NCBI GenBank assembly: GCA_965178125.1
Contig: OZ237746.1
Coordinates: 1,116,001 to 1,180,000 of the forward strand
Direction: 5' to 3'
DNA from: Bilabrum cf. latius
Lineage: Eukaryota
DNA: 64,000 bases
A program made the position numbers and the translations under genes. Positions 16,967 to 62,500 of the stretch are shown here, piece by piece (positions within the stretch are counted from its first letter, which is position 1; every line of letters starts with the position of its first letter). A model generated the notes under the pieces. That model did not search any database. It was not told the origin of the DNA and saw nothing but the letters and a program-made list of their open reading frames with translations.

Positions 16967-17065
16967 TAAACTAGCTCCGAGTATTGAAGTGGGAGCTACG
17001 CGGTCCAGCTGTTTCCCGGCGGCGGTGATGAGTGGGATCGTCGGCAGTTGCACATGGCACTTCGA

Positions 17066-18029
17066 ATGGCAGCCCCGCGCGCTGACGATGTTTCCTCGTA
17101 GTATAGATAGGTTAGAGTGCTAATGTAGTAGCTAGGAGATGAGTACGAGTAGTTGGAAGATGGAGATAACTCGCCCGAGGCAAAAAATCAGGCGTGTCGA
17201 ACCTTGAACGCTGTGTAGCAGGCGCTTGCTCGCTTGCAGGCTTCCGTGGCGGAATCAGCAGACGCAAAATGGATTTAGTAAGCATGTTCACGCCATATTT
17301 GACTGGAAACCATCGCTTGCGGGCATACTGTTGAACAGCAGCTGCTGGCAGGCGCGCTCTACCCAACCGCAGGCAGTCGAAGGCCTTGTAGCATGAGCTT
17401 CAGGAGCATCGTGGCAATATGGAAAAATATATGAGTGCTAGTTATGTGCGTGGCCAGGTCGCTCGTGATAGGAAGCGGCTGTTTTAGGGCGCTTCGGTGA
17501 GGACCAACGAGCTGCCAGCATTGACCGCGCTGCCCGCGCCGCTGTCCTGGCCCCACACTAAGCTGCAGATTATGCTCTCTCCTTGCAATGTTCCCCGCAG
17601 TCTCACGCGGAGAATGGGATTGTAGATACGCTAGTGCGTGAGGGCGACTCCCATCGCCGCAGCCGCACGATGGTGAACCGGTTCATCGCGCAGATGACGG
17701 CGGCCGGCGAGTCCCTCACCAGGCAAGGGGACGCGTTGAGGGGGGCGCGTCGGGGCCTCCTTGACATGGCCAGGTCTCTCGGGGTGTCCCAAGGGGTGGT
17801 GCGCTGGGTGGACCAGCGCGCGACCGTGGACCGCATCCTCCTCGTGCTGGGCGGGCTGCTGCTGCTCGTGCTCATCCTCGCCCTGTGGTACTTCAGGAGA
17901 GGAGGGGCCGAGGTCGTCAGCCAGGGGATGCAAGCCGTGGGGGTGGTACCCGGAGACGGTGGGGTAGGACCTGGGGACCAGGGGGGCGAAGCGGGGGCCG
18001 GGGAGCAAGAGGATGCGGTGCTTTCGTAA
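17066..18029 (+). CDS. GOSR2: Membrin/Bos1/GOSR2-type Qb-SNARE; exons 17066-17277, 17373-17496, 17601-18029
   Basis: C-terminal SNARE motif (EGDSHRRS..QGDALRGARRGLLDMARSLGVSQGVVRWVDQR..D) plus TM. The helical N-terminal domain is readable only with TAG as sense (9 TAGs). Two GT-AG introns; TAA stop. Confidence 0.8.
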
Positions 18030-26700: not shown

Positions 26701-29652
26701 CGCAAGCAGAGCGGCTCAAGGTACGTGCCTCCCTCCCAGCGCAAGAAGCAGCAAGCCGAACAGCTGGGCTCGGGGGATACCTTGCCGCCGCCCACGCCGC
26801 TGCTCGGGGCCATGGGGGTGCCGCAGGGCGCCATCGACGCGGAGGGCTCGCCGCTGGTGTCCGGGGCGCATGGGCAGGGGCTTGGTGTCCTTAGTGTCGC
26901 TGCTGCAGCTGCGTCCAGCACACAGGGCCAAGGCCAGGGCAAGAGCAAGTACCGGCCCCCGACTCGCCGCACTGAAAAGGGTAAGTCCTTCCTCGGGGCC
27001 ATCAAGGGGAGCGGGGCAGTGCCTGCAGCAGCCACCGACGACGCTGTCGGCGCGGGTACCCCCGCGTCCAGCAGCGACGATGGCCCCCCCTCTGCGGCGC
27101 TAGCCTTCATCCTGGGCGCCAAGGAACACACGGGGCTGCGGCTGTCTATGGAGGAGCCAGGCCCCGGCGGGGCCACTGTCACGGCGGCCACCACGGTCGC
27201 CCGCACGCAGCAGCAGGGAGCTTCGGGCCGGGCCAGAGCCATGTCCCCGAGGGCCGTGCTGGAGCGGGAAATGTACCCGGCGGGGGCGGCGGGGCGGGGA
27301 GCTGGGGTGCGAGGAGACGGAGGGGCCGCCTCGGCTGCCGCGGATCGGCGCGAGAAGGGGAAGGGGCGCGCAGGTGGTCCCGGGCGGGGCCGGCCTGGAG
27401 TCAGCAGCGGGCGGCTGCCCTCCTCCACGCTGTCCCTGCGGCGCGCGCGGCGGCGCAGGCGGGGCCTGTACAGCACAGGGGAGGTCCCTGGGATCGGCGT
27501 CTTGCCGCAGGGACCCGGGTCCATGGGCATGCGCGGGATCAAGCTCCTGCGGGCCGCCACGCGCCTGGAGCTCATCCCGATCGACCACGGGCTGTGCATG
27601 CCCGACGCCGACGTGCCCGACGCGCTGAACGACGTGAACTGCTCGTGGCTCTTCTGGCGACAGGCCAAGGAGCCCTTCAGCGAGGCGAGCCTGCAGTACA
27701 TTGCGGCGCTGGACGGGCGGGCAGACGCGCTGCAGCTGTGGAGGGTGTTCGGGCCGGACGGGGGCGCGGACGACATCAGGGACGCGGGCAGGGGGCCGGG
27801 AGAGGACGGGGCGGGGGCGGCGACCGCACGGCCCGCGGCCCGGGTGACGCGTGGCAGCATGCTGTGCCTGCGGATTTGCACGCTGCTGCTGCAGCTGGGC
27901 GCGTCTGCCGGGTTGAACCTGCACGAGATCGGCAGGTTGATGATCCGGGGGCCCACGTACTCGCAGGCAGACCTAAGGAGACCAGACCCCCTGTCTGGGA
28001 GCAAGCGGCTGGTGCTCAGGTACGGGGGGCCGCTGCCGAGGGATGCGGTTGCTAGGCACAGGGGTGGTCAAAGGGAGGGAGAGAGGCGGGGTGCTGCCAG
28101 TGGGTGGGCGCTGGCTGCAGGCGGGGATGGGGACGGCAGCGACTCGGCCCGTGCCAGTGCCAGTGCCAGTGCGGGCGGGAGCAGGCTGGAGGCGGGCTCA
28201 GGGGCCTCCACTGGGGGCATGAGCGGAGGCACCGGGGCCGACGTGCACAGCTAGGGGCACGGGCGCGGGCACGGTCACGGGCACCACCGGCTGTCCATCC
28301 GACTCCCCCGACTGGCCGACATCGAGCCGTACCTGGTGAACCCCCAGTACCAGCCCCCGGACCATGACCCAGACGGGGAGAGCGGGCCGTTGCGCAGGAA
28401 AAGGAGCAGGGGATCCAGCGCGGTCATTTCAACACCGACCCCAGCACCGACCCCCTCGCTGCTCGCAGGACACTCGGGTCCCGTGTGCGCCGAGGTGGGC
28501 ACGGTGGGTGCCTCTTCGACCACGGGTGCGGCGGGGCGGAGCCACTCGGGGTCTGGGGGCGGCACAGCGGGTGGCGGTGTGGGGGCGGGGGCGGGCCCCG
28601 GAGAGGACGAGGGCATGATCGGCGGGCGGCGGTGGTCGGGGCTGGAGATGGCCCTGGCGGGGGCTCGGCTGGAGCAGCACCGCCGCTGGGCCTCGAAGGC
28701 ACGGGCGGCGGCTGTGGCAGTGACGGGGGCCGGGATCACGTCCAGGGCCTCGCGCACGTCGCTTCAATCCATGGAGGAGGCCGGGCTTGAGCAGGGACAG
28801 GGGCAGGGGCAGGGGCAGGAGGCGACCGGTCGGGGTGGAGCAGGCGAGGAGGCGGCCCACTCGAGTGCATGGGGGAAGCACGGGCACTGGCACCAGCACG
28901 CCCGGCCTGTCTCTGCCTCCATGGACTCTGTGCCTGGGCTGGGACTGCCCGTCACGGAACCTGGGGATCAGGGTGCTGGAGCTGCCTCCTCCGTCCATGC
29001 GACCGGACCTGGACGCGCCAACAAGGACGAAGGGGAACAAAGGGAAGGGCCCTCTGCCAGGCCCGGGGCCAGGCAGCCGCTGATCCAGGCCCCCCGCAGC
29101 AGGAGCAGCAGCAGCCTACGAGTAGCAGGCCGGGGCCGTGTACCCCCCGGCGGTTCCAAGCTCCGAATCCAGGCGCAGGTGCAGGTGAAGGCGCCAGAAC
29201 GGCAGCAAGGGCAAGGGCAGGGGCAAGGGCAGGGGCAGGGGCAAGGGCAAGGCAAGGGGCAGGGCACTGTTGCATCGCAGTTCCCTACAGCTGCGGTCGG
29301 GCTAGTGGCGGGCCAGAGGGGTGGTGGGGCTGGCCATCTAGGTCGCAGCGCAGGCGCAGGGTCAGGTTCAGGTTTAGGGCTAGGGACGGGACCGGGCGAA
29401 TCTGGTGCCAGCGGGGCCGCTGGAGGGGACGGTGGCGGCAACGGCCAGCTGGCAACGCCGGGGGACCGCCGGTCGGCTGGACCAGTTGGACCGGAGACTG
29501 GGCGCCCGGGGGAGCCGAGCTTCCTGGAGGAGCAAGACGAGCTGGTGTATCTGTTCCGGCACGCGATCGAGCCCTTCCTGGCCCTGGCCATCGTCAGGCG
29601 GTCCGAGGCGGGCTCGTCCTCAGCGGCGGGGTTCCGCGGGATCTTCGGTTGA
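20758..29652 (+). CDS. Type II PI4-kinase (PI4K-gamma-like) of about 2850 aa with very large low-complexity insertions; exons 20758-20888, 20999-21170, 21400-29652
   Basis: GAYQLRD..VFK|PEDEE..NPRG, REAAAFLLDH..VPPT, KLGSVQLF, VHRIGILDVRLCNLDRNEDNILI, LIPIDHGLCMP and WLFWRQAKEPFS. The frame is open for 8.2 kb apart from TAGs; TGA stop. Exon 1 is tentative. Confidence 0.8.
25675..25920 (+). repeat. Perfect (GCTGGT)n hexamer microsatellite, about 41 copies, encoding (Ala-Gly)n inside the PI4K ORF
   Basis: Directly visible tandem repeat. Confidence 0.98.
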
Positions 29653-30191: not shown

Positions 30192-30385
30192 GTTTAAGCC
30201 AACATTGTTTGCGGTGTAATGCCTCGGGTCGAGTGCGGAGACGCTGCAACCGCTGCATTTTTCGAAAGGCTCCGGGTTCCCAGACATTGCTTGCCGAGTA
30301 AAGCAAAATATCAGCAGTAAATTTCAGTATATTTAATTGAATATGTAAGGATTCGCTGCTGCGTGCGTATCATCGCACCGCTGCC

Positions 30386-33265
30386 ATGCATTGCTTGGAA
30401 CACTGCAATGATGAGAGAGTTCGATTTGGAATGCCGATGCGCAGGCCGAGAAAGCGAGGCAGAACCCGCAAAAAAAAGCAAAGGCAACAAAAAACGGCGG
30501 CAGATGCGCGCAAAGAATTGTATCGTTCGCAGGAGGACAGGTTTTGGTCCACTCTTTCCTCTGAATGCAGAGGCTTCGAGCGCAATGTCGAGGCACTTCG
30601 GCGAGCCTGCGGTCTCGGCATGGGAAGCCGCCACCGGATCGTTGGCGCAACCAATCTGATTGAGCTTGGATCTACTGTACTGCTTCGTCTGATGGCGGGC
30701 GCGATCCGCCTTGGAGACAAGGGCGACCGTCCTCCTGTCCCCGGCACTCCGGACATGTGCGGCGAGTACGGCATGTTTTTCTGCGACATGTGCTCGATGC
30801 TGCAGGTGGACGAGCCCAGGCCCAGGGACGGCTTCACAGACATGGCCGCCCGCGACCAGCGTGTGGGCCCGAATCCCCTAGGCCCGGCCACTGTGTGCAT
30901 CACGGCAGAGGCCATCCGGCTCATGCTCGTCCGGGTCCGCATCACGAGCAACTACCTCTACGGGCCAGAGTTCGGGGACGGGCCCGCCCGCCTGTGGCTC
31001 CCCAGCATGCAGGACGGCCGCGGCTCGTTCCTCCGGCGGCCCCCCGCTGAGGCTCTCCTGCAGTGCCCTGCAGTGCCCCCCGCGGGGCCCATGCTGCAGG
31101 ACGAGGCCGGGTCCGAGTGCGACATCACCATGGCCTCGCAGTTCTCAGGGGCGTGCCTGTCGGCCTGGTCCATGCGTCCCACGGACGACACGGTGTGGAA
31201 CCACCACCCGAACGAAGAGCGGGTCGCGACACGAACCAGGGCAGGCAACCGCCACGCCGCGCACACGTTCTTCGAAGGGCATGAGGCTATGGTGCAGGTC
31301 GTGCCGGGCATGGCCCGATGGGTCAGGAGTGCGTTTTTCCCCGGCAAGGGAGCCATGGACTGTGCCAGGGGCATACCCAGGCCCGACCTCCCGCCACGCA
31401 TGCTCCCGGGCGCGCCCCTGCCCAAGCACCCCGCCACGGCGGGGGAGGCTGTTGGGTTCCTGGCCCCCATGCAGCTGCTGGCGGCCGCGTGCATGTACGG
31501 GGGCGCGGACGATCTGGCTGCGTACGAGCTGAGGAAAGTGAAGGGTGGCCATTCGATGACGATGTCGTCGCCGCACGAGGTGCTGCCCGTGGTGGGCAAC
31601 CAGTGCAGGGGTCGGCTGGAGACGATCTGCGGTGCGTTCTGGCTGGGCCTGCAGTACCTGGACATGCGAACGGAACAAAAGGGTGCGACTTCCTCCGGGG
31701 GTGACGGCGGGTCTGTCTCAGCCGGGCAAGGAGGAGACGTAGAGGGCGAAGGCGACGGCATGGCGGCCTGTGGCGGGTCAGAATCAGTAGGGAACGATGG
31801 GGGCAAGCCTGCAGAGAGCGAGGAGAAGGAACGCGGAGGCGCTGGAGACGATGGAAGGGAAAGGGAAGAGGGGATTGGGGCCGTACACCCGCACGCTGCA
31901 GCAGAACCCGCAAGCAGCGGAGCCGGTGCAGATGTAGCCGGTGCCGGTGACGCCCAAGCCGAAGCAGAAGCAGAATCCAGCGCTGCAGCATAGCCCGGCA
32001 GCCCATCCCAGCGGCCCATGGGTGCCTACCCGCAGCCGTCCGACTACCGCCTCATCCGCTGCATGGCCGAGCTCATGGACGGGGCTGCCATGGCCATGCT
32101 CTACCTGGCCATGCACAGGGCAGTGAGCAGGCAGGCGGTCACGGGCGAGACATGGCACCTGTACTTTGGTATGCTGCCGAACCTGCTGCAGGACTGCGTG
32201 GCATTCGAGACGAGGCACATGGGTCAGCTGGAGGACAGCGATGCGGAGGATGCCATTCCGTGGGCGCGCAAGTTCACAGGGCAGCTCAAAACCACCACCA
32301 AGGCGGCAGGCGTGGCCGATGCGTACCGTCTGCTGCTGCTGCAGACCGGTGGTTGGCACGACGGGATCCGCGCGGCCACCATGCGGAGGAAGGCCGAGAT
32401 GGAGAACAAGGACAAGGACAAGGACAAGGACGAGGCCGGGTGTGCCGGTGCCAGAGCCGGCGATGGAGACGGCACGAGTCGGGGTGGCGTGGCGCTGGAC
32501 GAATCTGGCAAGTGCCTCCTGGAGCGTGTCCTGGATCTGTGCGAATAGGGGCGATCCAGTGGGCTGGACGTGTTCAGCAGGGGGGCACTGGGTCGGGTGC
32601 TGGCGGCGGCCGTGTGGTATCATGAGGAGGATGATCTGTCGGAACACGCCGGCAGGCTGCGGACGGTGCTGGAGGACCTGTGGGGTGCGGTGGATGATTC
32701 ACTGAGCAAGTACGGGGGGCATGGGCTGGCAGGCATCACGGACATGCGTGTGGACGAGTACTCGGATGCTTAGGTGGCCGAGGATGCGAGGGTGGTGAGC
32801 AGCAGGAGCAAAGATGGAAAGAAGGGGTAGGAGGATAAGGTGCTGCCCGACCTGTCAGACAGGGGCAGTGGCAGGTGCGCCTCTAGGCCGATCGCAGGGT
32901 ACTTTATGCTGCAGCTCCCCACGCACGGGACCAGCGTGCAGCACTACGTGGGCGCGATCGAGCTGCACGCGGCATGCTTCCAGAGAGGCATGCAGAAGGA
33001 GGTGCCCATGCTGCCCAGGTCTGTGCACCTGGCCATGCGCGCCCCCCGCTTCAGGCACTGGGTCAAACAGTACGAGTGGCTGTGCGTGGATCCGCTGCGG
33101 CCGCCGAGCGAGGCGGGCAGGGGGAGGAGGACGGGGCGGTCTGCTCTTCGAAGGCACACTCTTTCGGTAGCAGCCGCGCTGAAGCGGCTCGTGAGCATCG
33201 TGTCGACGGATCGGGTCCTCGCCCTCTTGCGGTTCCGGCAGGCGGCGGTTGCGACCGCGATGTAA
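30386..33265 (+). CDS. Uncharacterised protein, tandem paralog A (basic NLS-like N-terminus)
   Basis: ORFs 30386, 32018, 32570 and 32840 are in one frame and are joined by TAGs; colinear similarity to paralog B; TAA stop. Start is uncertain. Confidence 0.7.
31319..31536 (+). repeat. 218-bp block duplicated at 34354-34571 between the tandem paralogs
   Basis: Base-by-base reading shows apparent identity from tgggtcaggagtgcg to gagctgaggaa. Confidence 0.9.
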
Positions 33266-33522
33266 TGCGCCTTGTTCGCAGCCGTTGGTTGTACGATACA
33301 GCCTGCGAAACTGCCTGCATCGCCTTTCGTCGCGTTTAGAATAATGTGAGGATTCGGTCAAAATTGCTAGTACTCGGAGCATGTCAGTGATTTTAGGGGA
33401 ACTGATACACTTGGCCGCCCAGTGAACAGCTTCGCAGGACTCGAAAAAGCAAGAAAGGCAAGTCAAAGACAAGGGCAAAACGGGAGTGGGCAGCTCCACC
33501 AGGGCAGCCTCGAAAGTACGTA

Positions 33523-36162
33523 ATGTTTCCCGAACAAGTTTCCATTGGATCAAAGACGTGGGGATTCCTGAAACTAGAGCGATCTTAGCTTCAGCAGCGA
33601 ATCGTTGATCTCAGGCACTGCATGAGGCTAGCGACAGGGCCTACGATGCCTTCGAACGAAAATATCAATAATTCATCCGATCCACGAATACAGTTTGCGG
33701 GTGTGGGCGGACTGCTGGGAGGATTCATGCGTCTGGCTTGTGGCCCACCGGGCACGGCCAGACCAGGGAAGTTCTCGGGCAGCCCTGGGCATTACAGCTC
33801 CGCACACTACTGTGCCTCGTATAATATGACTCGCCATAGATCGAATGAAGGGTACGATCAAATGGTAGCCGCAGACGGAGAGATCAACGACACGTGCTTG
33901 GGCCCGCCCACCGTGTGCATGACGGCTGAATCCATCCGGATCATGTTGGCCAGGTACATGGTAGAGACTAGGTTCCTGCACGGGAAGCAATTCGGCGACG
34001 CTTCTTCCCTGTGGCTGTAGCCACCGCGGAGGGCATTCGGCCGCTCCTGGCTTCCCTTCGAAGAGTTCCTGCGCTGCCCCGCAGCCCCCATGCGCGGCCC
34101 CACGCTGCATGACGGCCGCGGCGGGCGTCTCCCCGGCAAGCTGTCGCACCTCGTGTCCACCGCCGTGTGCTCGGCCTGGAGCATGCGGCCCAGCGACCGG
34201 ACCCCGTGGCTTGAATCATTCGTGGACGGGGGCTTCTGGGAGACATGGGACCCGGACGAGGGAGGCTCTGCCGTGCCACGGCGCATATTCGCTGACCACA
34301 ACCTGAACTACGGGAGGGAAGCAGCTCGGGCGTTCATGCCCGGGCTGATCGACTGGGTCAGGAGTGCGTTTTTCCCCGGCAAGGGAGCCATGGACTGTGC
34401 CAGGGGCATACCCAGGCCCGACCTCCCGCCACGCATGCTCCCGGGCGCGCCCCTGCCCAAGCACCCCGCCACGGCGGGGGAGGCTGTTGGGTTCCTGGCC
34501 CCCATGCAGCTGCTGGCGGCCGCGTGCATGTACGGGGGCGCGGACGATCTGGCTGCGTACGAGCTGAGGAACAGCATGAAGCGCAGGACAAAGGAGCACA
34601 GGCCGAGACCAGAGGCTGACGACTACAACTACTTATCCGAGTACGAGTGCGACATGTACGAGCGCATGGGCTGCGACCCGGATGACATGGTGGACTCGTA
34701 CGGGTACGGGGGGGAGGAGCCGGAAGATCCCGACGATGAGTCGCTTGGACTGTCGCCGGACAGACACGGTATTACAGCCACCAATGCGCTCAAGAGGCTT
34801 GAGACAATCTGCGCGGCATTCTGGCTGGGCCTGCAGTACCTAGACATGCGAACCGAAGCAGGGCGGTCAGCAGCAGCTACAGCCCAAGGAGCAGCAGGGG
34901 GGCATTCATTGGCAGCTACTCCTTGCGAGAGTGGTGCAGGCAATGGTGGTGCGCCGGTGACTGGCAACGATGCTGCAGCTGGGGCTGCTTCAGCTGCCAG
35001 CCTGCACAGTTCTGTGGGTGCCTACCCGCAGCCGTCCGACTACCGCCTCATCCGCTGCATGGCCGAGCTCATGGACGGGGCTGCCATGGCCATGCTCTAC
35101 CTGGCCATGCACAGGGCAGTGAGCGGGTAGGTGATCAAGGGCGAGACATGGCACCTGTACTTTGGTATGCTGCCGAACCTGCTGCAGGACTGCGTGGCAT
35201 TCGAGACGAGGCACATGGGTCAGCTGGAGGACAGCGAGGCGGAGGATGCCATTCCGTGGGCGCGCAAGTTCACAGGGCAGCTCAAAACCACCACCAAGGC
35301 GGCAGGCGTGGCCGATGCGTACCGTCTGCTGCTGCTGCAGACCGGTGGAGCGATGGACAAGCTTCGAGAGGCCAGTGGGCCTGTGAGTGCTGCCGCCTCC
35401 ACTGGCAGCGGAAGGATACCGCTGGGAAAACTGCACCAGCCCCTGCCATCCACTGGCAAGCTTGCTGGGGGCGAGTAGACCGGGGCAATGCCGCTTGCTG
35501 CCGTTGCTGCGCCTTGCAAGTGCCTCCTAGAGCGTGTCCTGGATCTGTGCGAATAGGGGCGATCCAGTGGGCTGGACGTGTTCAGCAGGGGGGCACTGGG
35601 TCGGGTGCTGGCGGCGGCCGTGTGGTATCATGAGGAGGATGATCTGTCGGAACACGCCGGCAGGCTGTGGACGGTGCTGGAGGACCTGTGGAAGCACGCA
35701 GATGACTGGATCATGACGAATGGCGGCCATCCGCTGGCGCGCCCGTATGGCCCCGCCGCACAGGCCGGTGCACCCTCCGAGAACTACCCCAGGCCCGCGT
35801 TTCTGATGCTGCAGCTGCCCACGCACGGGACCATTGCGCAAGGCATCGTAGGGGCGATCGAGCTGCACACAGCGTGCATGGACCGGGGTGTGGGCGATGT
35901 GCCGTGCCTACCGAGGTCGGTGCAGCTGGCCATGCGAGCTCCCCGCTTCAGGCTATGGGTCAAAACGTACGAGTGGCTGTGCGTGGATCCGCTGCGGCCG
36001 CCGAAAGAAGAGCGCAGGGGTCGAAGGAAGACCGAGCCTTGGCTCCGTGGATCCACGCTGTCGGTGGCAGCCGCTCTCAAGTCTCTTGTAGACAGGCGGG
36101 CGGCGGAGCGAGCGAGGTGCGTGGCGCTGTTCCGGTCAGCAGCGGTGCGCTCGGCCCTGTGA
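33523..36162 (+). CDS. Uncharacterised protein, tandem paralog B
   Basis: ORFs 33622, 34090, 35131 and 35578 are in one frame and are joined by TAGs. Shares GPxTVCxTAExIR, WVRSAFFPG..YELR, GAYPQPSDY..LLQTGG and WLCVDPLRPP with paralog A; TGA stop. Start is uncertain. Confidence 0.7.
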
Positions 36163-38294: not shown

Positions 38295-41243
38295 ATGGGC
38301 GTCTCGTCCCTGTACTACGGGTTTTCGTGGGCGATTCGTGCGATAAGCATACTATCTATATCATACATTCATCCTGATGAGATTTTCTAGTCGGAAGAAA
38401 TCGCAGCTGGATGGATCAACCGGGACAGCGTGCGGGTGCCATGGGAGTTTGCGAATTCAAGCGCCCCTGCACGCTCCATCGTGGTCCCTGCGCTGGTCTC
38501 GGCCGGGCCACTATGGGTATCAGGGCTGATTTCCTCAGTCACTGCCGCGGTCGTTGGAGTTACTCACCAATTGTGGCTGCGTCGAGCCTGGTGCGTCGCT
38601 CTCACAGGACTGTGCGACGCATGCATCTGGGTAGCCTGCAGGAATGTCCGGGCGGATCCGCTCCCATGTCTCGCCATATTTGCATCGTGTTGGCCAGTGA
38701 TTGTGTTTGGAGGACACGCGTTCAGCAACACGTTGGAGGCGACCGTCGTAGCAGCTGCGATCGCATGTGTCGCATGGTATCTCCGCGCAACTGCAAATTC
38801 CGGTGCGCGCTTCACGGCACCACAACAACAAAGCAGGCAGGCAGTCGCTGCTTTGATTGGTATTGGGGGTGTAGCAGCTCTAGGGTGTGCCGTACGCATC
38901 TCATTTCCCGTGTTCGTTTCGGGGTTCGCGTGCGTGTCCCTCGGCGCCCTGTGGCTGCACGGTGCGGAATCTTCTTCTCGGGACAAAGGCACGCCCAACT
39001 CGGAAAAAGCCTCACCAGATCCGCAAGAAGTCAAGAAGGTCGATATAGGCATGCCGGTGATTGGCGATGCGAGGCCTGTTGATTGCGGCTGCTCGGCGCT
39101 GGCACGCATCGCGTGGGGAACCTGCTTGGTGCTCGTTTCCTTCGCCGCCACGACGCTGGCCATCGCAGTCGCGGATTCTATGGCTTGGGGCACTCTACAT
39201 ATTCCATATTTGCAGTCAGGTGGTCAAGGAGAAGAAGGGCTGGAGCACGCCGCCGTGCGCCCCGCTCTCCCGGTTCCTGAGGACGCCACGTCGCCCGCGC
39301 CCTCCGTCGAGCTGGCCGCGCTGGGGATCCCGGGGAACATCGGCACCGGACGCATCGTGTTTCCTACCCTGGGCAATCTGCTGTACAACCTGGACCCGGC
39401 CAAGACGGCCACGCACGGGCTGCACCCCCGCTGGACGCACGCCGCCGTGAACCTCCCCCTGCTCTTCGGGCCGGTGGCTCTCCTGTTCGCATGGAACGGG
39501 GCCCTCCTGTGCGCGCGGCTGCTGCGGGCCGGCAGCCTGCTCCAAGCCACCCGCGTGCTCCTGCGGCGGCCCCTCCGCAACGGCGCCCTCCTCTCCGGCG
39601 CCGTGTCCCTGGCCGTGCTCTCTGCAGCCAACCACCAGGAGGCCCGCTTCCTCGTGCCCATGGCCGTGCTCGTAGGGCTGGGCTGCGGGGAGTCGCTGAT
39701 GCCGGGGAACAAGAAAGGGGGTCAGAGGGACAGCCGTGGGCGAGGGGGCGATCAACAGGATGAGGATCAGGCAGCTGCCCCGCCCACGCCCACGCCCACG
39801 CCCACGCCCACGCCCACGGGGGGGGATGACTTGGACGTCGACATGGCCCTCCCCGGGATGCTGCGCGGAGTCTTGCTGGCTGCGTGGATGCTCACGAATG
39901 CGCTCGGCGTGGTGGGCTTCGGGTGGCTGCACCAGGGTGGCGTGCTGGCGGGGGCAGCAGCGGCGGGGAGGCGGGTGATTCTGGAGGAGCTGGCGAGGGC
40001 CGTGGGGGGCAGCGCTGGGGAACTAGAGGAGGAGGATAGGGGGGGGAGCGAGAGGGGCTCTGTGGTCGGTGTGATGGAGGACGAGGGGGCTTCTTCCCTC
40101 GCGATAGATGGAGGGCAGGTGGATGCCCATGGGCTGGGCAGCAGTGTGGGGATCGGGCTCGGCGGCGCGGCGGCGGCGGCGGCGGTGCTGTCCCAGATGG
40201 GCGGCAGCAGCATCGGGACTGTGCTGAGCTACAGCTCCTACACGCTGCCCAGGCACAGTGTGACGAGTGGATGGAACAAGGACTTCTCTGGCGCAGGCCT
40301 GGGCATGCTGCGGTCGGGTGCGATGGAGGAGGTGGGCGGCGGAGGCATGGACTTGGACACGGACGTGGGCGTGGGCGGGGACCTGGAAGGGAAAGGGAAT
40401 GGCGCGAGGCTGCTGATGGTTGACGCGGCCTCGCCGAGCGTGCACCGAGCATTGTAGCTCGAGTGCGCGAGGGAACCGAGGGAACAGCGGGGTGGGGGGA
40501 GCTAGCAGGCCAGCGGTAGCGAGTCAGAGTCGGAGTCAGCGTCAGCGTCAGGCTGCATCAGCGTGCCTCGGTGCGCGGGCCCTTTCTGCGACTCTAGGTT
40601 CAGGCACGACCTGAGCTTTGAGTCGGGATCTGGCTTGGATGACACCGCGAGGGGCATGGCCAGAGGCGCGGAGGGCGGTGAACAGGCGAGGTAGCCTGCT
40701 GTGTCCACGCTCGGGTTCCTAGCCTCTGGCGTGGGTGGGGGAGCCAGGGCGATCGAGATCGTGGACGTGGATGGTCCGGACGAGGGTTCGCTGCGGTTCC
40801 ACCTGGAGCGGTCGCTGTTCGGCGGCGCCGGGCTCTTGGACTCGGAATCGAGTGCCAGCGCCAGTGCCGGTGGTCATCCAGGGGCCGGGGATGAGAACCC
40901 CGCCACGCTTGTGCTGGCACCCGCCTCCGTCAGGTTGCACGTGGAGGGGGCGGCCAAGGGGGCCTGTCACGCGCACGACAGGTCAGCTGTGCTCCGGCGG
41001 CTGGAGAGCGTAGGGCCTCATTTGTCTGGGGAGGCGCCCCCTCCTCTGGGCCGCGCCCTTGCTGCCAGGCTTGGCGCGGCGTGGGCTGGAGCTGGAGCTG
41101 TGGGCCAGGGTCAGGGCCAGGGCGCTGGAGAGGGCGTGAGTGGGCTGCTCGAGGCGGCGGGGCGTGGGCTGCGGGAGGACTTGAAGGTGGCTGAGGAGAC
41201 GCTGTGGCTGGACGTGTGGAGGGTGCACTGCGAGGCAGTTTGA
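38295..41243 (+). CDS. PIGZ: GPI mannosyltransferase 4 (PIG-Z/Smp3, GT22)
   Basis: SYIHPDEIF(TAG)SEE, PWEF, FSNTLE, NLLYN..HGLHPRWTH..VNLPLLFGP, HQEARFLVP and FGWLHQGGV; four TAGs; TGA stop. Confidence 0.9.
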
Positions 41244-48300: not shown

Positions 48301-48707
48301 TCGGGGCCGCTGCTCTCCTGTCGGCTGGACTGTCGGCGGCCTCCGATCTCCTGGACGATCGCAGGTCTCCGTCCACTGGCGCGGGGGTTTCCTTGGCTCG
48401 TTGCGATGCGGATCGATTGCGCGAAGCGGCAGACGGCGTGCGTCGAACGCGGGCTGTCTCGCAAAAGGAGCGAATGTTGATGTGGAAGAGAGCTGTAGTG
48501 GCGGAGAGGGACGCGGGGATGGTGTTTTAGGCCGCGAGTCAGGGGTGGCCCATGGAGCTCGCCAAGAGGTTGAAGTTAGGACGGTTGGCGCGTGGGCTAG
48601 AAAAGATGGGGGTGTTGAAGGGTGGTGCAGTCGCAGGACCGCTGGAGGCAGCTCGGCTGGGTGGCCACGATGAATGCGTGCGATTGCTGGAAGATGCTCT
48701 CCGGTAA
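45375..48707 (+). CDS. RNI-like leucine-rich-repeat protein with a C-terminal ankyrin-like motif
   Basis: Repeated LxxLxL units (SIEQLEL, SLRRLWV, TLRALHL, SLRELRL, NLRQLTL); ends PLEAARLGGHDECVRLL. Five ORF fragments in one frame are joined by TAGs (8 in total); TAA stop. Start at 45375 or 45420. Confidence 0.7.
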
Positions 48708-48832: not shown

Positions 48833-51800
48833 TCACTTGCTTCTCTTCAGCCCGACTCCAGGCCGGCGCTTACCACCGCTCGATGTACGCACCAGCCCGA
48901 ATCCGAACAGGGTTCCCTTGGCCGACACCGAGCTGGGGCTCTTCCTGCTCGTACCTTGCTTGCTCCCTCCCGTGCGGCCCAGCAGCAGTCCCGCAGCTGG
49001 GCTTGAACTGCGCGCACCGCCTGCCGGTCGCACAAGCCCCACGCGAGGCCTAGCCTTGGGTCGGGCTGGCTCCGCCACCTCGACCTTCGCTCGGGGTTCC
49101 AGGTCGGATTCATCTCCATCTCCCGTCAAGTCTTCCACCTCGGATGATTCGGACCCCGAGTCGCTGCGGCTGCCATCGACCGCATTGGCTCTGTTCACCC
49201 CCACCGCCCGCATGGCTTCCTGGATGGAGGTGGGCCTGCGGCCAGCGACGCGCGGGAGAGTGGCCTCAGCAGCGTCTTCATCCAGGGTTATTACAACGGA
49301 GGATGAAGACGAGGATGACCTTGCTGACACAGGGCGGTTGCTTCCATTGGCGCGCTGTGGCGGTGGCCTGGCCGAACCAGAAGAGTCCGCTGCGCCGCTA
49401 CCACCGGCCGACATCATCGCCATGAACCCGCCATCGTCCCCCTCCATGGCATCCTATTCAGCCGAGAGACCAGCGGGCGCAGACAAAGGAGCACCGCGGG
49501 CAGCCCCTCTTCCGGGGCTGGTGGTGACTTTGAACACGGACTGCCCTTGCTGAAGCGCTGTGCGTGCCACCTGGGCTGCCCCGTATCCACCAGCAGATCC
49601 TGCTGCCGCCGCCTTCGAAAATGGTGAAGGCAGGGCAGGCGCGCCCGGCATGCGCGGTAGCTTGCCCCGAAGCTCCTCGGGGTAGCGGATGCGGGCCAGC
49701 GAGCTGGGATGCACCTCGCCAGCCGCCACCCTCCTGGCCAGGACGGGGTCCGCGAAGTCTCTCCCGAAGGCAGCCCTGACCAGCTCTGCGATGGTGGCGA
49801 TGCGGGCCGTGGTACCGGGAGAGGCGCCAGTGGGACCCGCCGCCGCTCGATCCACAAAGGACTAGGACTAGGACTAGGACTGGAATTGAGACGAGGACAC
49901 GGGCTGGCTACTAGCCGAGAAGAACGACTGCACCGCTTGCTGGGGCTGGGGCACGGAGGCCTGGCTGGCCACCTGATTTCCGCTGAGGCTGGAGCTCTCC
50001 GCGATGAGTCGCTGAGAGGAAGTCGCCAGCGCGTCCCGCTGCTCGCTGCGCCGTGCATGTGCCTGGGCGGCGGCACTCGACACCGGGGTGTGCCGGGCCC
50101 CCAGCGAGTGGCGCCCCGTGGCCGTGGCTGCCTCCTATCCCAGGGGGGGCACCCTGAAGAAGCTCGAGATGGAGGACGAGGATGAGGCACCCTTCGGCGG
50201 CGGTTCGCTGCGACTGCGCTTCTTGTCGGGCTACTCCTGCTCTTCGTCTCTGTCACGGTTCGAGGCGTCATTCTAGTCCTCTTGACCGCTCGGTGGGGTG
50301 CCGTCTGCGGGTGCTTGGTCAGCTGCATCGCTGATAGCTGCTGCTGCGCTGCTCGAAAGGTCATGACTCGATACAACGCCCGGCGCCTCACCGCCAGGTG
50401 TGGTCTTGGAGGAAGAGGAAGGGGATGAGCCCGAGGTCTGGGCAAGTCTGGCCAGCGCGGCGGCGGCAGCTCCCCTTCGGCTGCGGCGACGGGCAGGTGC
50501 TGCTGTCGAGGGCAGTGCATCTCGCGGTAGTATATCTTGATCGATGGAGTCTGCTGGCCCATTGCGCGCCCTTGGGTCGCTGACACCATTCCTTTGAGCC
50601 TATTCATGGCCTGGGGACCCAGACTGAGCCTCTGCAATTGCGGCATGCTCGGAAGCATCGTCACCGCCACCGTCGCCCTCGCCCTCGGAACCGATCCCCA
50701 CGCTCTCCACTTCGTCTTCCATCAAGACCTGGCCCCGCTCCTACCCTGAGCCACCCCTTGTACTCTCTGCAGGGAAGAGATTCTTGCGAATGTCTTGCGG
50801 GCCAGGCCCCTTCGTACCCCCACCGCGCAGCCCATCCAAGGATGCTAACCCGCCCCTGTCAACTGCTGCTGAGCCCGTGTCTGCACCAGCAGCCGCTGCC
50901 TCCTGTATGATCCCCGACACGCTGCCAGCCATCGCTGAGGCTGGCTCCATGCCTGCCCCAGCTCCCGCCTCGGCTCCTGCCCCTGCTCTGGGCCTCACCT
51001 TGCTCTGGGTCTAGGGGGTCGACAAGTAGGACGAACCGTCCCCAGCCGACTGCCCCTGCACAGGGGAGATGCCCAGCTGGCCAGCGCCGTCATCGCACTC
51101 ACCCCTGGCAGCAGCAACCCCCGCAGACGCAGCCGCTGATGCCGGCACGATCGACTTGGTCTCTGACGCGAGCGGGCCAATCGCTCCCGCCACTGCTCCA
51201 TCCGTTGAAAACACCGTCGCCGATTCCTTGTCCTGGCCAGCAGTCAACGCCACCCCACGACCGGATCCCTGCTGGCTGACCCCTCCCATGAGCGGCCGCA
51301 TGGGGGTTAGCAAGATGGCCTGCCGCTGGCTGGGCACGGGCGTCAAGAAGGCGGCCACCTGCGCCCGCGGGTCGTAGACCACATGGTGCAAGAAGCAGCT
51401 CTCTGCCATCCTGAACCGCATTTCGTAGTCCACCGGCACCTCTACGACCTTCTTCGCATTGCCGCCCCTCCTGCGCTTCTTCCCCAGCCCCCCTGCTGCC
51501 TTCTGCCGCACGGCAGCCACCACCCTCAGCACCCTCTTGTCGTCCTCCGTGTCCCTGTACCTCCACACGAGCTCGGCGGCCGACACGGTGCCCACCCCCG
51601 GCAGCGAGTTGATGTAGTCGCACCCGCTCAGCACGCACACCTGAAGGAACTGGCGTGCCGTCAGCCGCCGCATGATCCGCAGGAACTTGCTGCTGCCTGC
51701 CAACCGGCCGGCGGTGGCCGCTACAGCCTTGCTCCCGCCACCTTTGCTCCCGCCGCTGTTGCCCTCACCACCACTCGTGGCGTGTTTCGAGCCTTGCGTA

Positions 51801-53555: not shown

Positions 53556-53620
53556 TTATCTTCGTCCCTCGCTCCCGCCGTCCTCCTCTTCTCGGATGAC
53601 CTCTGCCTCCACCACACCTC

Positions 53621-53683
<63 letters not shown>

Positions 53684-54974
53684 CCCCGCCCTCCACGGCG
53701 GACCAGAGCATCTGCACCGTCGCGTCGTGCACGATGGACAGGTCCAGAAACCTGCCCCCGAGCAGCCGCATGGACTGCGCCCACACGCTGTTCTGGTGGA
53801 AGTACCGGTCGTGGTCATACACGTCCCCGTCCCCTTCCACACCGCCTCCACCACTGCTGCTGGACGACGACGACGGCTCCGGCCGAGGGGGCGCCTCCAG
53901 CATGGCCGGCATCAGCGCCAGGTCGCGCACAGCGTCCCCGGTTGCAACCACGCAGCCGGGCATCTCTGGGAATCCCAGCTCCACCTCCCCTCGGGGGGTC
54001 CTCGCGGCGGCCCCCGTTGCGGGGTCCCTGACCGGCTGCAGGCGCATCATGTCGCAGCCCACCACGATCTTGAAGTCCCTGGCCTGCGCGGCGCCCTCAT
54101 CCATCAGGGCACGGATCTCGGTCAGCTTGCCACCCGCGCACAGCCCGGACTTGGTGAGTCGCACGGCTCCCTCGATGGCGTCGTACGGGTGCAGGATGAC
54201 CATGCGGCCGTCCCCGAGACCGCCCTGGAACGCGTAGTTGCGCCCGATCTCGCCCAGGTCCAGCTTGGCCATCTCCGCGGCCCGCACAGGCAGCGGACGA
54301 TTGATGGCCACCGTCAGCACGTCCACGCCCCTGCCTTGGTCGGCGGAAGCGCCGCCGCCGCCGCTGCCGTCCTCGGCCTTGGTGGCCACCACGCCCAGGA
54401 CCAGCCTCACGTCCCGCGCGTAGTCCGCAGCCATGGGGTTAGCCACGATGATGGACCCCGTGCCGATGCTCTCGTCCACTTTAAGCCCCCCCTCGATGCC
54501 CTGCAGCTCGGGGAGGCCCATGTCTTCGCTCGCGAGCTGGGGCGTTGTGGTCTGGATCAGGCTGGAAGCCATCTGCAGGGCAAGCGCGCCCACGCGCATG
54601 TGCTCTCTATACTCATCGGCGGCTGCATTCGATTCATCGGATGCCGAGGCAGCTTGGGACTCGCTGCCGGCCCGTGCCAAGTCCGATTCGATCCCGAGGA
54701 CCTCGGGGTTCCGGAACGATTCGCGAAGCACCTGCGAGAGCGTCGGCAGGTCGCCGTGCCGAGCTGGTTCATAGAGGCCAACTGGCTTGAATAGCGGCTC
54801 AAGCCTGCGTGCAAGGCACCGCGTGTACGCATCGGACGAATCGCGACAAGAGGCCAAAGGCGCAGCCAGAAGCGAGCGAAAGGCCAGATTCCTGTCCATC
54901 ATTCTTGCCGTCCGCATGAGAGCGCGATACAACGACAACGAAGATACCTTTTGAGACACCTAACTCGCGCTCAT
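53556..54974 (-). CDS. DUF179/UPF0301 (AlgH/YqgE-like) domain protein with N-terminal LYR-like motif and polyQ
   Basis: GSIIVANP..YARDVRLV, INRPL, QGG..LH, DFKIVVG and WAQSMRLLGG; LYRALMRTAR near the N-terminus. The ATG at 54974 is reached through one TAG; TAA stop. Confidence 0.65.
53622..53678 (-). repeat. (CAG)19 polyglutamine tract
   Basis: (ctg)n on the + strand, in frame in the DUF179 gene. Confidence 0.95.
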
Positions 54975-55120
54975 AATGTACTTGGAGGCCTTGCAGGAGC
55001 AAATACTGTAGTTGCCGATTGCGTGAGGCATTCTAGCAGCGTGACGAGTGGACTCGGACTCGATCGGATCCGGCTCCGGCACGTTGGCGCCAAAACCGAG
55101 CGAGCACAACTCGCTTGAAA

Positions 55121-57086
55121 ATGGCTGCATCTGGAAGGAGTGCCTGCGATGCCGTGCTTGAAGCTAGGAAGAAGGATTATAAGAAGAGTATCACGAAGGA
55201 AGAATCGCGGATGAGCAGGACTTAGACGACGATTTAGATCCGGAAGAAGAAGCAGGAGGAGATGCGCGCGAAGCGCCGCCGACGAGTTGCGCCGTCTCAA
55301 CCGGCCGGATCGGCTGGCGAGGCGGGGACATCATCTGATACAAAGGGTGGTTTCTCTCACGAGATCCGCCCGGTTACCACCGGTCAACTGCCGGAGGAGA
55401 TCTAGGATGCGCACATGGGCATCTACAGATAGCGTGAGCAATCGATCGAACCAGCGTCTCGAAGCGCAGGTGCTGCCACGTTAAAGGACCATGATTTGTT
55501 GTATTAACAACTTGAACATTCCGCTCTACTCCGCTCGCTTTCCTTTGCCTTCGCGTTGTGCTTATGCCGCAGACTTGCTGGGCGAAGACCCGAAGACGCA
55601 GCTGGAGGCTGCATTTTGCGTGCGGAAGCTGCTCTCTAGGGAATCAAGGCCTCCCACAGAGGCATTCCTTAGGACGGGCGTGCTTCGCCGCGTGGTGGAG
55701 CTCATGCAGCACACGAGCGAGGCCCGCATGCAGTTCGAGTGCGCCTGGATCCTGACCAACATCGCCTCCTCGGAGCACACGAGCGTCGTGGTGGAAGCGG
55801 GGGCCATCCCCGTGCTGGCGCACCTGCTCAGAAGCGCAAACGTGGACGTCAGGGAACAGTGCATCTGGTGCCTGGGCAACGTGGCGGGCGACGGGCCCCG
55901 CCTCCGTGACGCCGTGCTCGCCACCGAGCACACGGTGCCCAACATCATCCTCAACATCCAGAACTCGCCCAGGCCCTCCGTGCAGAGGAACGCCGTCTGG
56001 GCACTCTCCAACATGGCCCGCTTCAAGCCGGCGCCCTCCCCCCGGGCCGTCCTCGCCGCCGCAAAGGCCTTCTCGCACCTGGTCATGACCACCTCGGACC
56101 AGGAGGTGCTCGTGGACAGCTGCTGGGGCCTGCAGTACGTCACTGACGCGGGGCCCGAGCTGGTGGATCTCGTGGCTAGGTCTGGCGTGCTGCCCCGGCT
56201 GGTTGGGCTCATGGCGGAGGGCTCCAAGTCGCTGGGCACTCCGGCGGTTCGGTGCGTGGGGAACATCGTCGGTGGAGACGACAGCACGACGGACCGGGCC
56301 ATCGAGGCGGGTATCCTCGAGGCGCTGGGCCGCATGCTGGACTCGCCCAGCAGGAACCACAGGAGGGAGGCCGCATGGGCGCTGTCCAACGTGGCGGCGG
56401 GGACCAAGACCCAGATCGCCAGGCTGTGCAGCACCCCTGGCCTGCTCGCCAAGCTGGTGGAGCGCATGGCCACGGACGACCAGCTGGTGCAGAACGAGGC
56501 GTGCTGGACCATCTGCAACGTGGCCGCCTCGGGCAGCCCCAGCGACGTGCTGTGCCTGGCGCAGGAGGGGGCCATCCGGTCCCTGTGCCTGATGCTCACC
56601 AAGCGGCTGCATAAGGTCCTGCACATCTCGATCGGGGGTCTCACCGCCATCTTCAAGCTGGGCAAGGACAGGGAGGCCAAGGGGCTCTCACCGGCCTTTG
56701 ACGATTTCTACGCCGAGTTCGAGGAGGCCCAGGGGGTGGAGGTCATGGAGGAGCTGCAGGACCTCGATGACGAGGAGCTGGCCAAGAAGGTGGACAAGTT
56801 CGCGGACGAGTTCCTGTGCGTGGAGGACGAGGAAGGCGAGGACGGCATGGGGATGGGAGGGGGCGACGAGAACAACGTGGCCTAGGGCGGACAGGCGTTC
56901 TCCTTCGGGATCACCTCGGGGGCGGCGGCCGCTGCCTCGATGAAGCCGCCGCTGGGGAGCAGCGCTGGGGGAGGGGACGGGTGGGGCAGCTTCGGGCAGG
57001 CGGCCTCGGCTGGCAACACGGCTAGCGCCACTGCCGGCGGAGAGACGGGCGGCTGGGGCGATTTCTCGGGGGCCTCGTGGAACTGA
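55121..57086 (+). CDS. KPNA: Importin subunit alpha; exons 55121-55433 and 55573-57086
   Basis: IBB domain RKKDYKK..RT(TAG)TTI(TAG)IRKKKQEE..KRR; ARM repeats (FECAWILTNIAS, WCLGNVAGD, WALSN); phase-1 intron 55434-55572; TGA stop. Confidence 0.93.
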
Positions 57087-59545: not shown

Positions 59546-62500
59546 TCATGTGCAACCCACCAGGTCCGACCCAGCAGCCACGGAGCGAATGGTCGCCGAC
59601 AGGCTGGTGCCCGGCAGCCTCGTGTTGAGGGTCCCGCGGCACCCCAGCGCCCCGCAGCGGCAAGGGGCCACGCCCTCCCCCCGCGGGAACGAGTAGTCGT
59701 ACGTCAGCTCCTCGCCCACTGCGATGTCTCGCGAGGCATAGAAAAACATCCGGCCCAGCCGCACGGGGGGACGAGGAGGGCATGCCCCTGTCCCACCGGC
59801 AGGGAGCTAGCCCTAGCCCTAGCCCTAGCCCTAGTTCCTGCCCACCTGCAGCCGCAGCCGCAGCCGAGGGCTCACAGGGGACAGCGCCCGGACGCCTTCT
59901 TCCTCGGTCACCAGCTGGGGAGGCAGCAGCTCGCATTCTGACTCCGGGTCGTGACCTGGAGGCGGCTCGAACGAGGCCCCGCTGGGAGCGTCGATGAGCC
60001 TGTTGCCCGCGTAGCCTGACACAGCAGAGGCAGGGGCAGGGGCAGAGGCAGCTGCCCGCTGGCCCTCTGCCTGCATCCATGCCTCCTCAACCTCGTGGTC
60101 GGACAGTGTGTTGATGGCGTAGCAGTTCGGCTCGCAGCTGTGGTTGAGGTACCTGGCCGTGCACCCCGCCGTGGTGGCGTCGATCACCGCATCTGGTCCT
60201 GCCCTGAACATGTAGTCAGCCATGCCGTGAGCCTCGTACTCCCGCTGCCGCTTGGCCGCTTCTGCGTTGGAGACCACCTGCCCCTTGTACTCCGCGATCA
60301 CGTCGTTCTTCTAGATGTCCCTTGTGGCGAACAGGCCCAGCCCGTCGATGCGGGAAGCGCCCACTCTCAGGTGGCGCAGGTTCCACTGGGCGCGCCTCTG
60401 CGAGCAAACAAGACAAGGAAAGCACAGGAACCAAGGACAGAGGATGAAGAAATCGAGGAGGAGGCAGCGATGGAGCCAGAGACGCAGTTGGGATGATGCA
60501 GGGGAAGGCGTCAAAGGGCCACTGAGGGAGAAACAGAGAAACAGCGAGACACGATCGTTCCGACTCACCGCAAGAAGCGACACTGGCGTGAATTTTTCAG
60601 GGGCAGCCGCCCCCCTGCGGTGCCGCACGAAGTCCACCACCACAGGCCCGTAGTCCGGCAGCCTGGTGGACGCGAACTGCTCCAGCCGAGGGTGGATGCG
60701 GCTGCTGGCCTCCCCGCTTAGGGGGGCGCTGGCGTGCTGCAGGAATGTGGGAGCGTCGTTCACGTCGTGCGACGGACCCGATGAGCTACCTCCTTCTTGC
60801 ACCGCGCAGTCGCTGTGCATTTCCTCCCTGATGCGAGCCGCGAGCAGCGGCAGCCTGGATTGGAGCCTCGCCATCTCGGCGGCCTGGCCCGCGGGCATCG
60901 TCCTGCTCGACACTGCCCCGCCGCCGCTCGTGCCCCCGGGCGGCCGCATGCTCGCCAGAAGGGCCTCCCGCTGCGACTCGGCCACGGCTGCCAGCGCGTC
61001 TGCCTCCAGCTGGTCGAGTCCGTCCTCGCCGACGGGGAACTACGTGCCCTTGCCTTCTGTCGCAGAGCCACGTTCCTCGCTTCTCACTGTGCCTCCGTGT
61101 CCGCCTGCCTCTTCGGCGTGGGCTCGAGAGAAACACGCCTGTGCCTGAGCATACCCTCTCAGTGCGGCCTCTTCCGCCTCCGCCAATCCCACCACCAAGT
61201 CCTCCTCGGCGGGTGCAGCGAACTGCAGCATGGCCTCCAGACGGACGTCCCCCGCGGCGAGGAGCGGGAGGTTGGTTGCGGCCGTGGAAGGACCCCCGTG
61301 ATGCCCCTGCTGCAGGCCCCGTGCGAGCAGGGCGCTGACGGGGCGCTGAGGGCCGTGCAGCAGGATACAATTCACTGCAGCGTCGTGGAGCTGCAGCGCA
61401 GACGGGCCATCCGCATCGCCCCACAGCCCCGTTCGATAGTTCCTCCCGAGGGCGAGCGCGTAGCTGGCGACGGGGGGCGTGTCTGGGCCAATGGCGTGCT
61501 TCTGGTCGGGGGAGCCTGGCGCCGGCGGTCCTCCGCTGGACCCCTTATTATCGTCACCACCGTCAGCAGCACCTTGGCCCTGGCCCTGGCCCCTCAAGAT
61601 GTACTGCGTCCCTTTCGGCCCCAGCACCATGCAAAGGAAGGGACTGGACAGGAGAATCCGGGCTGCGCTGCGCTGCTGCTCGACCCCGCTGTCGCCAGCA
61701 CGGCTGTCCTCGCCATCACCAGCTGCTGACCCCCCGTCATCTTCTGCGTCCAGCTTGCATGCGGCAGCCACCGCTTGCATGCATCCCTCCCACCCGCCCG
61801 CGAGGTCACAAGCCACGGCAGGGGCGACATCGCCCAGCACGCGACCCCCATGCACCCGATCCGCAGCCAGCATCAGCACGTCGTGCCGAACCAGGTCCCG
61901 GAGGCAGCGGGCCGTGCCCAACCACGACCACGCGGGCGGCACAGCACCCTCGGCACCCTCTCCATGCGCCACCTTCCCCTTCCACTGCCTCTGCAGCCAA
62001 GCAAATTGCTCCCCCCACAGCTGCCGCACCGCCGCACACCTGGCACACGCCAGCCGGGCCGACCGCACGGCCTGCTGCCGCAAGAGCACAGCGGCCGATA
62101 CGCTCGACTGCACCAGCTGCCCCGTCGGCAGCATGGCCGTCACCGCTAGACCCTCCTCGCACACGTGGTGGTGCCCGTGCAGGCAGGACTCGCAGGTCAC
62201 GGGGGCCCCCGAGGCGAGGAAACACCCCATGTGGGGGTCTCTCGCCGCGCTGGGGGTACGGGACAGCAGCACGAGCTGCCCCGGGTTCATGTCGTTGGCG
62301 GGCAGGCCACGCAAGAAGGGAAGCAAGTGCTGCCCGGCGATCCGACCCAGCAGCTCCAGAGCCTGCGACTGAACGTCCTGTTGCTGCGAGCCACTGCTGC
62401 TTCCCGATGACACTGACGTATCGGCGCTACTACCACCACCACCGCCACCACCTGTGTCCCATCTCTGGACAAGTGCCCCGGCCAGGGCACCCACGGTGGT

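Follow-up and report, generated by a model that had tools for sequence, protein, structure and literature searches.

Nuclear genetic codes in which UAG has been reassigned while UAA still terminates translation are very rare; those named in the available text of two surveys are a fornicate, a rhizarian and a few ciliates (PMC5304391, PMC11687900). In the fornicate Iotanema spirale, the accessible part of the original report describes UAG as a glutamine codon and UAA and UGA as stops, with UAA as the primary terminator (Panek et al. 2017, PMC5304391). For the phyllopharyngean ciliates Hartmannula sinica and Trochilia petrani, the available sections give UAG as putatively glutamine and UAA as the preferred stop (McGowan et al. 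2024, PMC11687900). Codes in which TAA and TAG both encode glutamine are reported, in the part of the source available, from ulvophycean green algae, hexamitid diplomonads and many ciliates (Cocquyt et al. 2010, PMC2984419). Here we describe a stretch of 64,000 nucleotides of contig OZ237746.1 (the window hereafter), in which the gene of a SET-domain protein carries five in-frame TAG codons in a (TAG GGC)x5 microsatellite (59807-59833, minus strand). We propose that UAG is very probably an ordinary glutamine codon in this genome, with UGA (in most genes) and UAA as stops, and that the repeat is retained and translated within a loop of the SET domain.

As far as the available text on Iotanema goes, the window shares with it the reassignment of UAG alone, to glutamine, the retention of UAA as a stop, and hence decoupled meanings of UAG and UAA. 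It differs in its terminators, since 16 of its 19 long open reading frames (ORFs) end in TGA and three in TAA, whereas UAA is primary in Iotanema; it also differs in its GC content of 65% and in having no fornicate among the hits seen. Hartmannula and Trochilia likewise present a UAG-only change to glutamine deduced from genome data. Compared with what the accessible sections say of these ciliates, the window comprises multiple genes over 64 kb, has GT..AG introns of 139 and 171 nt and gave no ciliate best hit. With the table 6 type of code, as the available source describes it, the window has in common that TAG encodes glutamine in a nuclear genome, whereas TAA appears not to be sense in the window. 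Formally, its reading is described by NCBI table 15 (TAG = Gln), which bears the name 'Blepharisma' and belongs to a different biological system. The same is true of the code-15 crAss-like phages, which use this codon table according to the text available (PMC9523058). Our literature search, made by topic, found no report of a GC-rich lineage outside ciliates and fornicates that reads UAG alone as glutamine, which does not imply that such a case is unpublished. Most likely, the window presents a further instance of the rare UAG-only code known from Iotanema and the two ciliates.

Upon direct reading, the plus strand at 59807-59833 consists of four copies of CTAGCC followed by CTA, and Tandem Repeats Finder reports 59807-59834 as an array of period 6 with 4.7 copies and 100% matches. 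On the minus strand, this gives TAG codons at 59833-31, 59827-25, 59821-19, 59815-13 and 59809-07, the first four followed by GGC and the fifth by CTC, so that the segment reads QGQGQGQGQ(L) if TAG is glutamine. All five lie in the frame of the SET-gene ORF, which extends from 59549 to the window's edge at 64000 (minus strand) and contains 1484 codons with nine TAG, no TGA and no TAA; each of the other five frames over the same interval contains 9 to 23 TGA. An earlier reading of the letters by a model (the sequence-only reading) had placed five TAGs of a (TAG GGC)n repeat inside the SET domain, between its NHSC and GEELTYDY halves, and sequence, repeat finder, frame and coordinates (NHSC at 60145-60134 and GEELTYDY at 59716-59693, minus strand) all agree with it. 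Hexamer microsatellites are common in the window (at least 158 repeats at a score of at least 30 in Tandem Repeats Finder). The hexamer repeat itself is ordinary here; five stop codons in a frame of 1484 codons free of TGA and TAA are not chance.

The remark that Gln-Gly repeats elsewhere in this DNA are written with CAG and CAA also holds: 29194-29274 codes for PERQQGQGQGQGQGQGQGQGKGQGTVA with CAA/CAG and GGG/GGC codons, and the (CAA/CAG GGN)n array at 29203-29268 (plus strand; Tandem Repeats Finder and translation), which yields QGQGQG..., is the standard-codon counterpart of the TAG repeat. A second TAG hexamer repeat, (TAG TCC)x3 at 49862-49876 (minus strand), would read QSQSQS and lies in an EXO1/XPG-like gene (Pfam XPG_N/XPG_I; called as (AGGACT)x4 at 49858-49881). 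We suggest that (TAG GGC)5 is an expanded Gln-Gly hexamer of the same kind as the (CAG/CAA GGN)n repeats of this genome, which would stay in the mature mRNA and be translated as QGQGQGQGQ. Long poly-Q tracts exist without TAG too: (CTG)x19.7 at 53622-53680 on the plus strand gives about 20 glutamines, all CAG, in the minus-strand ORF 53559-55190.

Five TAGs within 27 nt had been taken to argue for full reassignment and not leaky readthrough. Taken alone, this argument is suggestive only; what decides the matter is found in the rest of the window and in a relative. The window is 65% GC overall (59-72% in 2-kb steps) and contains eukaryotic genes with Pfam matches to kinase, GH88, Sof1/WD40, PI3/PI4-kinase, GT22, RhoGAP, XPG, Arm-repeat, DAO and SET. 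Its 19 long ORFs comprise 18,728 codons, for which we took the expected numbers of stop codons from the other five frames. TAG occurs 88 times in frame against 90.9 expected, TGA 0 times against 196.2 and TAA 0 times against 24.2, the two zeros being partly by construction, since absence of TGA and TAA was part of the ORF definition. The density of TAG in frame (0.47%) equals that out of frame (0.49%), so purifying selection does not act against TAG in coding frames. On this ground the earlier conclusion of full reassignment is borne out.

The distribution of TAG among genes tells the same story. At least one in-frame TAG is present in 17 of the 19 ORFs, single ORFs contain 9, 11 and 13, and the matches to the SET, DAO and GT22 domains contain TAGs. 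When TGA and TAA alone are taken as stops, the longest ORF grows from 1095 to 2825 codons (21175-29649, plus strand, with 13 TAG and no TGA; the other five frames hold 12-28 TGA). As a check free of the bias built into the ORF definition, TGA was taken as the only stop, which gives 12 ORFs of at least 900 codons; eight lack TAA, and in each of the other four one TAA lies close to an end. No TAG is required as a terminator by any of the 19 ORFs. TGA still ends genes, TAA appears to do so as well, and the change appears to concern TAG only. A table 6 code (TAA + TAG = Gln) was rejected on the in-frame TAA count (0 against 24), on a pair of paralogues that end in TAA and TGA, and on a related metagenome contig with no TAA in its ORF. 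Where two genes converge, an LRR-type ORF on the plus strand ends in TAA at 48705-48707 and an EXO1-like ORF on the minus strand ends in TGA at 48833-48835, with about 125 nt between them.

Which amino acid is inserted can be read from conserved sites, and these agree with the glutamine assigned by the sequence-only reading. In a GT22 (Alg9-like/PIG-Z-like) mannosyltransferase gene (Pfam PF03901, 2.9e-35), the TAG at 38388-38390 (plus strand; YIHPDEIF-TAG-SEE) occupies the invariant glutamine of the N-terminal motif HPDE-x-F-Q. We assembled 151 sequences from an exhaustive search plus three word-index homologues, for which phmmer produced 146 aligned stretches. Glutamine occupies the column in all three word-index homologues and in 143 of the 143 homologues aligned there; three more have a gap. 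A position-free regular expression matched 100 of the 151 sequences, all 100 with glutamine. Further sites come from tandem paralogues at 30341-33262 and 33406-36159 (plus strand), in which the TAG at 35128-35130 of the second copy faces CAG (32132-32134) of the first in a conserved block (AMHRAVS.Q/TAG..GETWHLYFG). Another TAG is conserved in both copies, and the stop codons of the two, TAA in one and TGA in the other, follow the same aligned residue. These paralogues, of about 920-970 codons, contain long near-identical blocks and have no Pfam match. The surroundings of TAG are also rich in glutamine, whose frequency within two residues is 0.089 against a background of 0.042, a twofold difference. 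Examples of Q-rich runs are TTG-TAG-QQGQQQQQEQ, GSGQ-TAG-QEVQ and QFQS-TAG-S-TAG-S-TAG-S. In the long ORFs, TAG makes up 11% of TAG, CAG and CAA together. The TAGs of the DAO-like and EXO1-like genes, judged by eye, are uninformative as to the residue.

An orthologous gene in a relative points the same way. The metagenome contig L001 (57% GC) encodes a Sof1 protein 83% identical to the window's and is syntenic with window 11541-17254, with a Suc_Fer-like gene (1400-3985) followed by Sof1 (5191-6012) on the same strand. The ORF at 1400-3985, upstream of Sof1 as in the window, has 862 codons with eight TAG, no TGA and no TAA, and the frames of this 6-kb contig contain 6-15 TAA each, none of them in the 862-codon ORF. 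Aligned with its counterpart in the window (14156-17254, minus strand), it shows 60.5% identity across 831 columns. TAG occurs in 13 columns of this alignment, of which three face gaps, two are poorly aligned (opposite CCT and AAG) and eight are well aligned; the partner codons of these eight are CAG in six, CAA in one and CAC in one. One of the six CAG cases is the window's TAG at 14981-14983 (minus strand) in PFPDWF-TAG-P, which faces CAG in the orthologue. The two proteins end in SRPKW and SRPQW, in both cases followed by TGA. Across the 27 loci that we found with Sof1, the jump in ORF length upon reading TAG as sense (from 303 to 862 codons) occurs in L001 only, and the remaining 26 resemble genomes with the standard code.

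The repeat had been said to be necessarily either translated or spliced out, and contigs from sequencing runs bear directly on this choice. We compared the contigs of four runs (X1, X2, X3 and X6), excluding as evidence the parts that X2 and X3 leave uncovered. Two introns could be placed. One, of 171 nt (60398-60568, minus strand; GTGAGT...CGCAG), is in frame and stop-free, is skipped in X1, and its skip is absent from X6. The other, of 139 nt (55434-55572, plus strand; GT..AG with a GTGAGC donor), is skipped in X1 and X3, again with no such skip in X6. Both combine their GTGAGT/GTGAGC donors with pyrimidine-rich ...GCAG acceptors. Because these skips are exact, bounded by GT..AG and missing in X6, X1 and X3 hold spliced transcripts. 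The 171-nt intron, a multiple of three without stops, is thereby hidden inside the ORF. In X1 record 5 (2052 letters), letters 1-1206 correspond to window 60569-61774 and letters 1207-1729 to 59875-60397; letters 1730-1804, 75 in number and masked as repeat, face the 75 bases of 59800-59874, and letters 1805-2052 correspond to 59552-59799. The 171-nt intron is gone from this contig and the repeat region is present at full length. From 59875 upward, the sequence is crossed unbroken to 60397 by X1, to 60354 by X2 and to 60328 by X3, and no joint was found around the repeat in the contigs of any of the four runs. Across 59750-60110, where the absence of an intron had been proposed as a check, the contigs show none and the intron-less X1 contig keeps the region, with 75 of 75 letters at the masked stretch, so that translation is favoured.

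The exon that contains the repeat is the last of the SET gene (59549-60397, minus strand), its start being set by the X1 joint. It comprises the SET and post-SET regions in 283 codons and ends in TGA at 59548-59546. It matches Pfam SET (PF00856) at E 8.7e-22 and the PDB SET domains of KMT2C, KMT2D and KMT2A at E 1e-29 to 1e-26. SET is the sole Pfam family in the 1484 codons visible, and the N-terminus lies beyond the window. The gene is like the KMT2/SET1 (COMPASS-type) H3K4 methyltransferases, such as KMT2C (5f6k), in its SET motifs and its post-SET C-x-C-x4-C: it has NHSC and ELxYDY followed by the post-SET cysteine cluster that marks SET domains of this type, and N85, H86, C88, Y233, Y235, C246, C248 and C253 are invariant across eight aligned SET sequences. 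Its best named SET matches are from Micractinium. The match to KMT2C chain 5f6k_C (E 2.9e-29) comes in two pieces, with query residues 4-94 on chain residues 16-105 and 216-258 on 115-159. Between them, the window gene has a low-complexity insertion of 121 residues (59753-60115, minus strand) at a site where KMT2C has nine, and this insertion holds the repeat.

Most SET homologues lack this insertion; in the nearest homologue (P0003, 52% identical over the SET region), the corresponding site is longer by about 35 residues. An AlphaFold2 model of the exon from an eight-row alignment gives a predicted local distance difference test score (pLDDT) below 50 at residues 122-204, including the repeat at 189-198, and 72-77 for the flanking strand 213-221. 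The model as a whole is poor (mean pLDDT 51.3, predicted template modelling score 0.44) and lends weak support to a disordered insertion. The repeat probably forms part of a long, disordered loop within the SET domain. Such a loop would extend the hairpin that connects the NHSC and ELTYDY parts of this KMT2/SET1-type domain, and the catalytic C-terminal half and the post-SET motif would still be made. Because the nearest homologue has an insertion at the same point, pLDDT is low there, and a second TAG hexamer repeat exists in the window, the repeat is most likely just a microsatellite expansion in a tolerated loop.

The same exon contains a sixth in-frame TAG, which adds to the five noted earlier. 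It lies at 60311-60313 (minus strand) in the conserved N-terminal block of the SET domain and is present without any other letter in the contigs of X1, X2 and X3. It faces glutamate in KMT2C and E, K, R or A in seven homologues, a column that carries no information on the residue. Over 59875-60328 or further, the contigs of these three runs show no differences from the window, and because there are none at 60313-60311, this TAG is not edited.

The fate of the repeat could be read differently, either because it is not translated or because its gene is dead. If the repeat, or a larger part of the insertion, were removed as an intron, its TAGs would never be translated, and this idea draws on the in-frame intron nearby in the same gene (60568-60398), on the absence of the insertion from most SET homologues, and on a splice-site scan in which 21 frame-keeping GT..AG pairs could remove all five TAGs, one of them with a GTGAGC donor at 59875 like that of the intron at 55434. 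However, none of the 21 has a pyrimidine-rich ...GCAG acceptor like those of the confirmed introns, and 12 would cost conserved SET residues. Some of the pairs, shorter than 110 nt, stop within the repeat and show no pyrimidine tract. Seven use the repeat's own last AG. Six of these repeat-AG candidates (39-285 nt) have their donors in stretches that the contigs cross unbroken, and a 39-nt candidate, whose donor lies inside the masked 75 letters, is ruled out by the full length of this region in X1. For the remaining 168-nt candidate, the donor at 59955 lies in sequence that contigs from X1, X2 and X3 all cover without a break. Moreover, X1 record 5 has lost a real intron yet retains 75 letters opposite 59800-59874 and continues unbroken through 59875-60397, and splicing would leave the TAG at 60313-60311 and 82 other in-frame TAGs unexplained. 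We regard removal as an intron as very improbable. That the SET gene is instead a decaying pseudogene, its TAGs being nonsense mutations, would be the usual verdict on an exon with six in-frame stops. Against it stand 1484 codons without TGA, TAA or frameshift, SET motifs that are all intact, an intron that is removed in the X1 contig, and the recurrence of the same TAG pattern across the window's long ORFs and in L001, which together leave decay next to no probability.

Other explanations accept that TAG lies in genuine coding sequence and differ in what it does there. TAG might be ambiguous, acting mostly as a stop with low or context-dependent readthrough; readthrough of UAG by near-cognate tRNA-Gln exists in standard-code organisms, according to the available text of one source (PMC13192750), and in one ORF a TAG stands two codons ahead of the TGA (at 3392). 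Under such a regime one would have to account for the lack of purifying selection (88 TAGs against 90.9 expected), for single ORFs that carry up to 13 of them, for the six that lie upstream of the catalytic ELTYDY and post-SET part of the SET exon, for the one on the invariant catalytic-motif glutamine of GT22, and for 19 ORFs that all do without a TAG terminator. We consider ambiguity improbable. Alternatively, TAG might be sense for another amino acid, for example leucine, glutamate or tyrosine as in other UAG reassignments; the available text of two sources records UAG as leucine in the rhizarian exLh and some ciliates (PMC5304391, PMC11687900), and in the L001 alignment one TAG faces histidine and one lysine. 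The GT22 column (143 of 143 glutamine), the CAG or CAA partners at seven of eight well-aligned orthologous positions and the embedding of TAG within poly-Q and QG/QS repeats speak for glutamine instead and make any other residue extremely improbable.

Several observations weigh against UAG as an ordinary glutamine codon and against a translated repeat. Glutamine at UAG is deduced from nucleotide sequence, ARAGORN found no tRNA gene in the 64-kb window, and one of the eight well-aligned orthologous TAGs faces histidine (CAC). The case for TAA as a stop rests on few codons, TAA being rare at 65% GC. As to splicing, none of the runs is recorded as RNA, X1 is labelled 'RNA? (probably DNA)', and its spliced status rests on the two GT..AG skips absent from X6; the contig letters within 59800-59874 are masked, so that the comparison there is of length alone (75 against 75); and contigs give the dominant form and could hide a minor spliced isoform. 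Finally, the TAG two codons before the TGA of the ORF at 3392 would allow a residual stop role in some contexts. At this site (3392-3400, plus strand), a Nek-like kinase ORF ends ...EGGR-TAG-AY-TGA, an arrangement compatible with chance at the observed density of TAG; it is the only site at which TAG may still serve as a terminator.

If UAG is indeed glutamine here, it would be decoded by a tRNA-Gln, and eRF1 would have lost its recognition of this codon. The usual solution for UAG decoding is a CUA anticodon. Rfam, applied to the window at gathering thresholds, gave no matches.

The Sof1 gene offers the best view of the lineage. Among the matches listed, those with names come from stramenopiles, chytrids and plants at 39-49% identity, the best being brown algae, oomycetes and chytrids at 43-49%, and one further sequence is 86% identical to the window's protein. 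In a tree of 25 rows (the window and 24 of at least 120 matches, chosen as named or top hits), the window groups only with environmental sequences (96/96), and this group attaches weakly (50/34) beside ochrophytes. A Chlamydomonas-like, intron-rich green alga as the source was not upheld by the Sof1 hits and tree, and no chlorophyte is present among the Sof1 matches listed. The ESM Atlas returned generic Sof1 clusters only. Tentatively, and at somewhat below an even chance, we suggest that the window and L001 represent an undescribed GC-rich lineage with an independent UAG-only change to glutamine and UGA as the main stop, which would be the first case at high GC.

Should this hold, it would constitute another independent decoupling of UAG and UAA outside fornicates and ciliates, and a GC-rich, UGA-terminating lineage would add a case to a very short list. 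Such a lineage could help to show how the meanings of UAG and UAA come apart as eRF1 and tRNA-Gln evolve. In its high-GC genome, poly-Q and QG/QS microsatellites would acquire TAG through CAG-to-TAG transitions and then expand even inside catalytic domains. For annotation the consequences are practical. Standard-code gene models would truncate or mis-splice many genes of this genome and its relatives; because 17 of the 19 long ORFs carry an in-frame TAG, a large share of genes would be mis-annotated. Read with the standard code, the SET gene would be taken for a pseudogene or receive a spurious intron.

Two neighbouring genes show further features. Upstream of the main Sof1 ORF, a putative first exon (MKFKILQRS...NLDPKLHPLEKAKE) was recognised by eye in another frame at 12806-13250 (minus strand), which implies a further intron. 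The 2825-codon ORF at 21175-29649 has a weak PI3/PI4-kinase match (7.3e-10) and is of extremely low complexity; within it, (GCTGGT)x41 at 25675-25921 would encode about 82 residues of alternating alanine and glycine.

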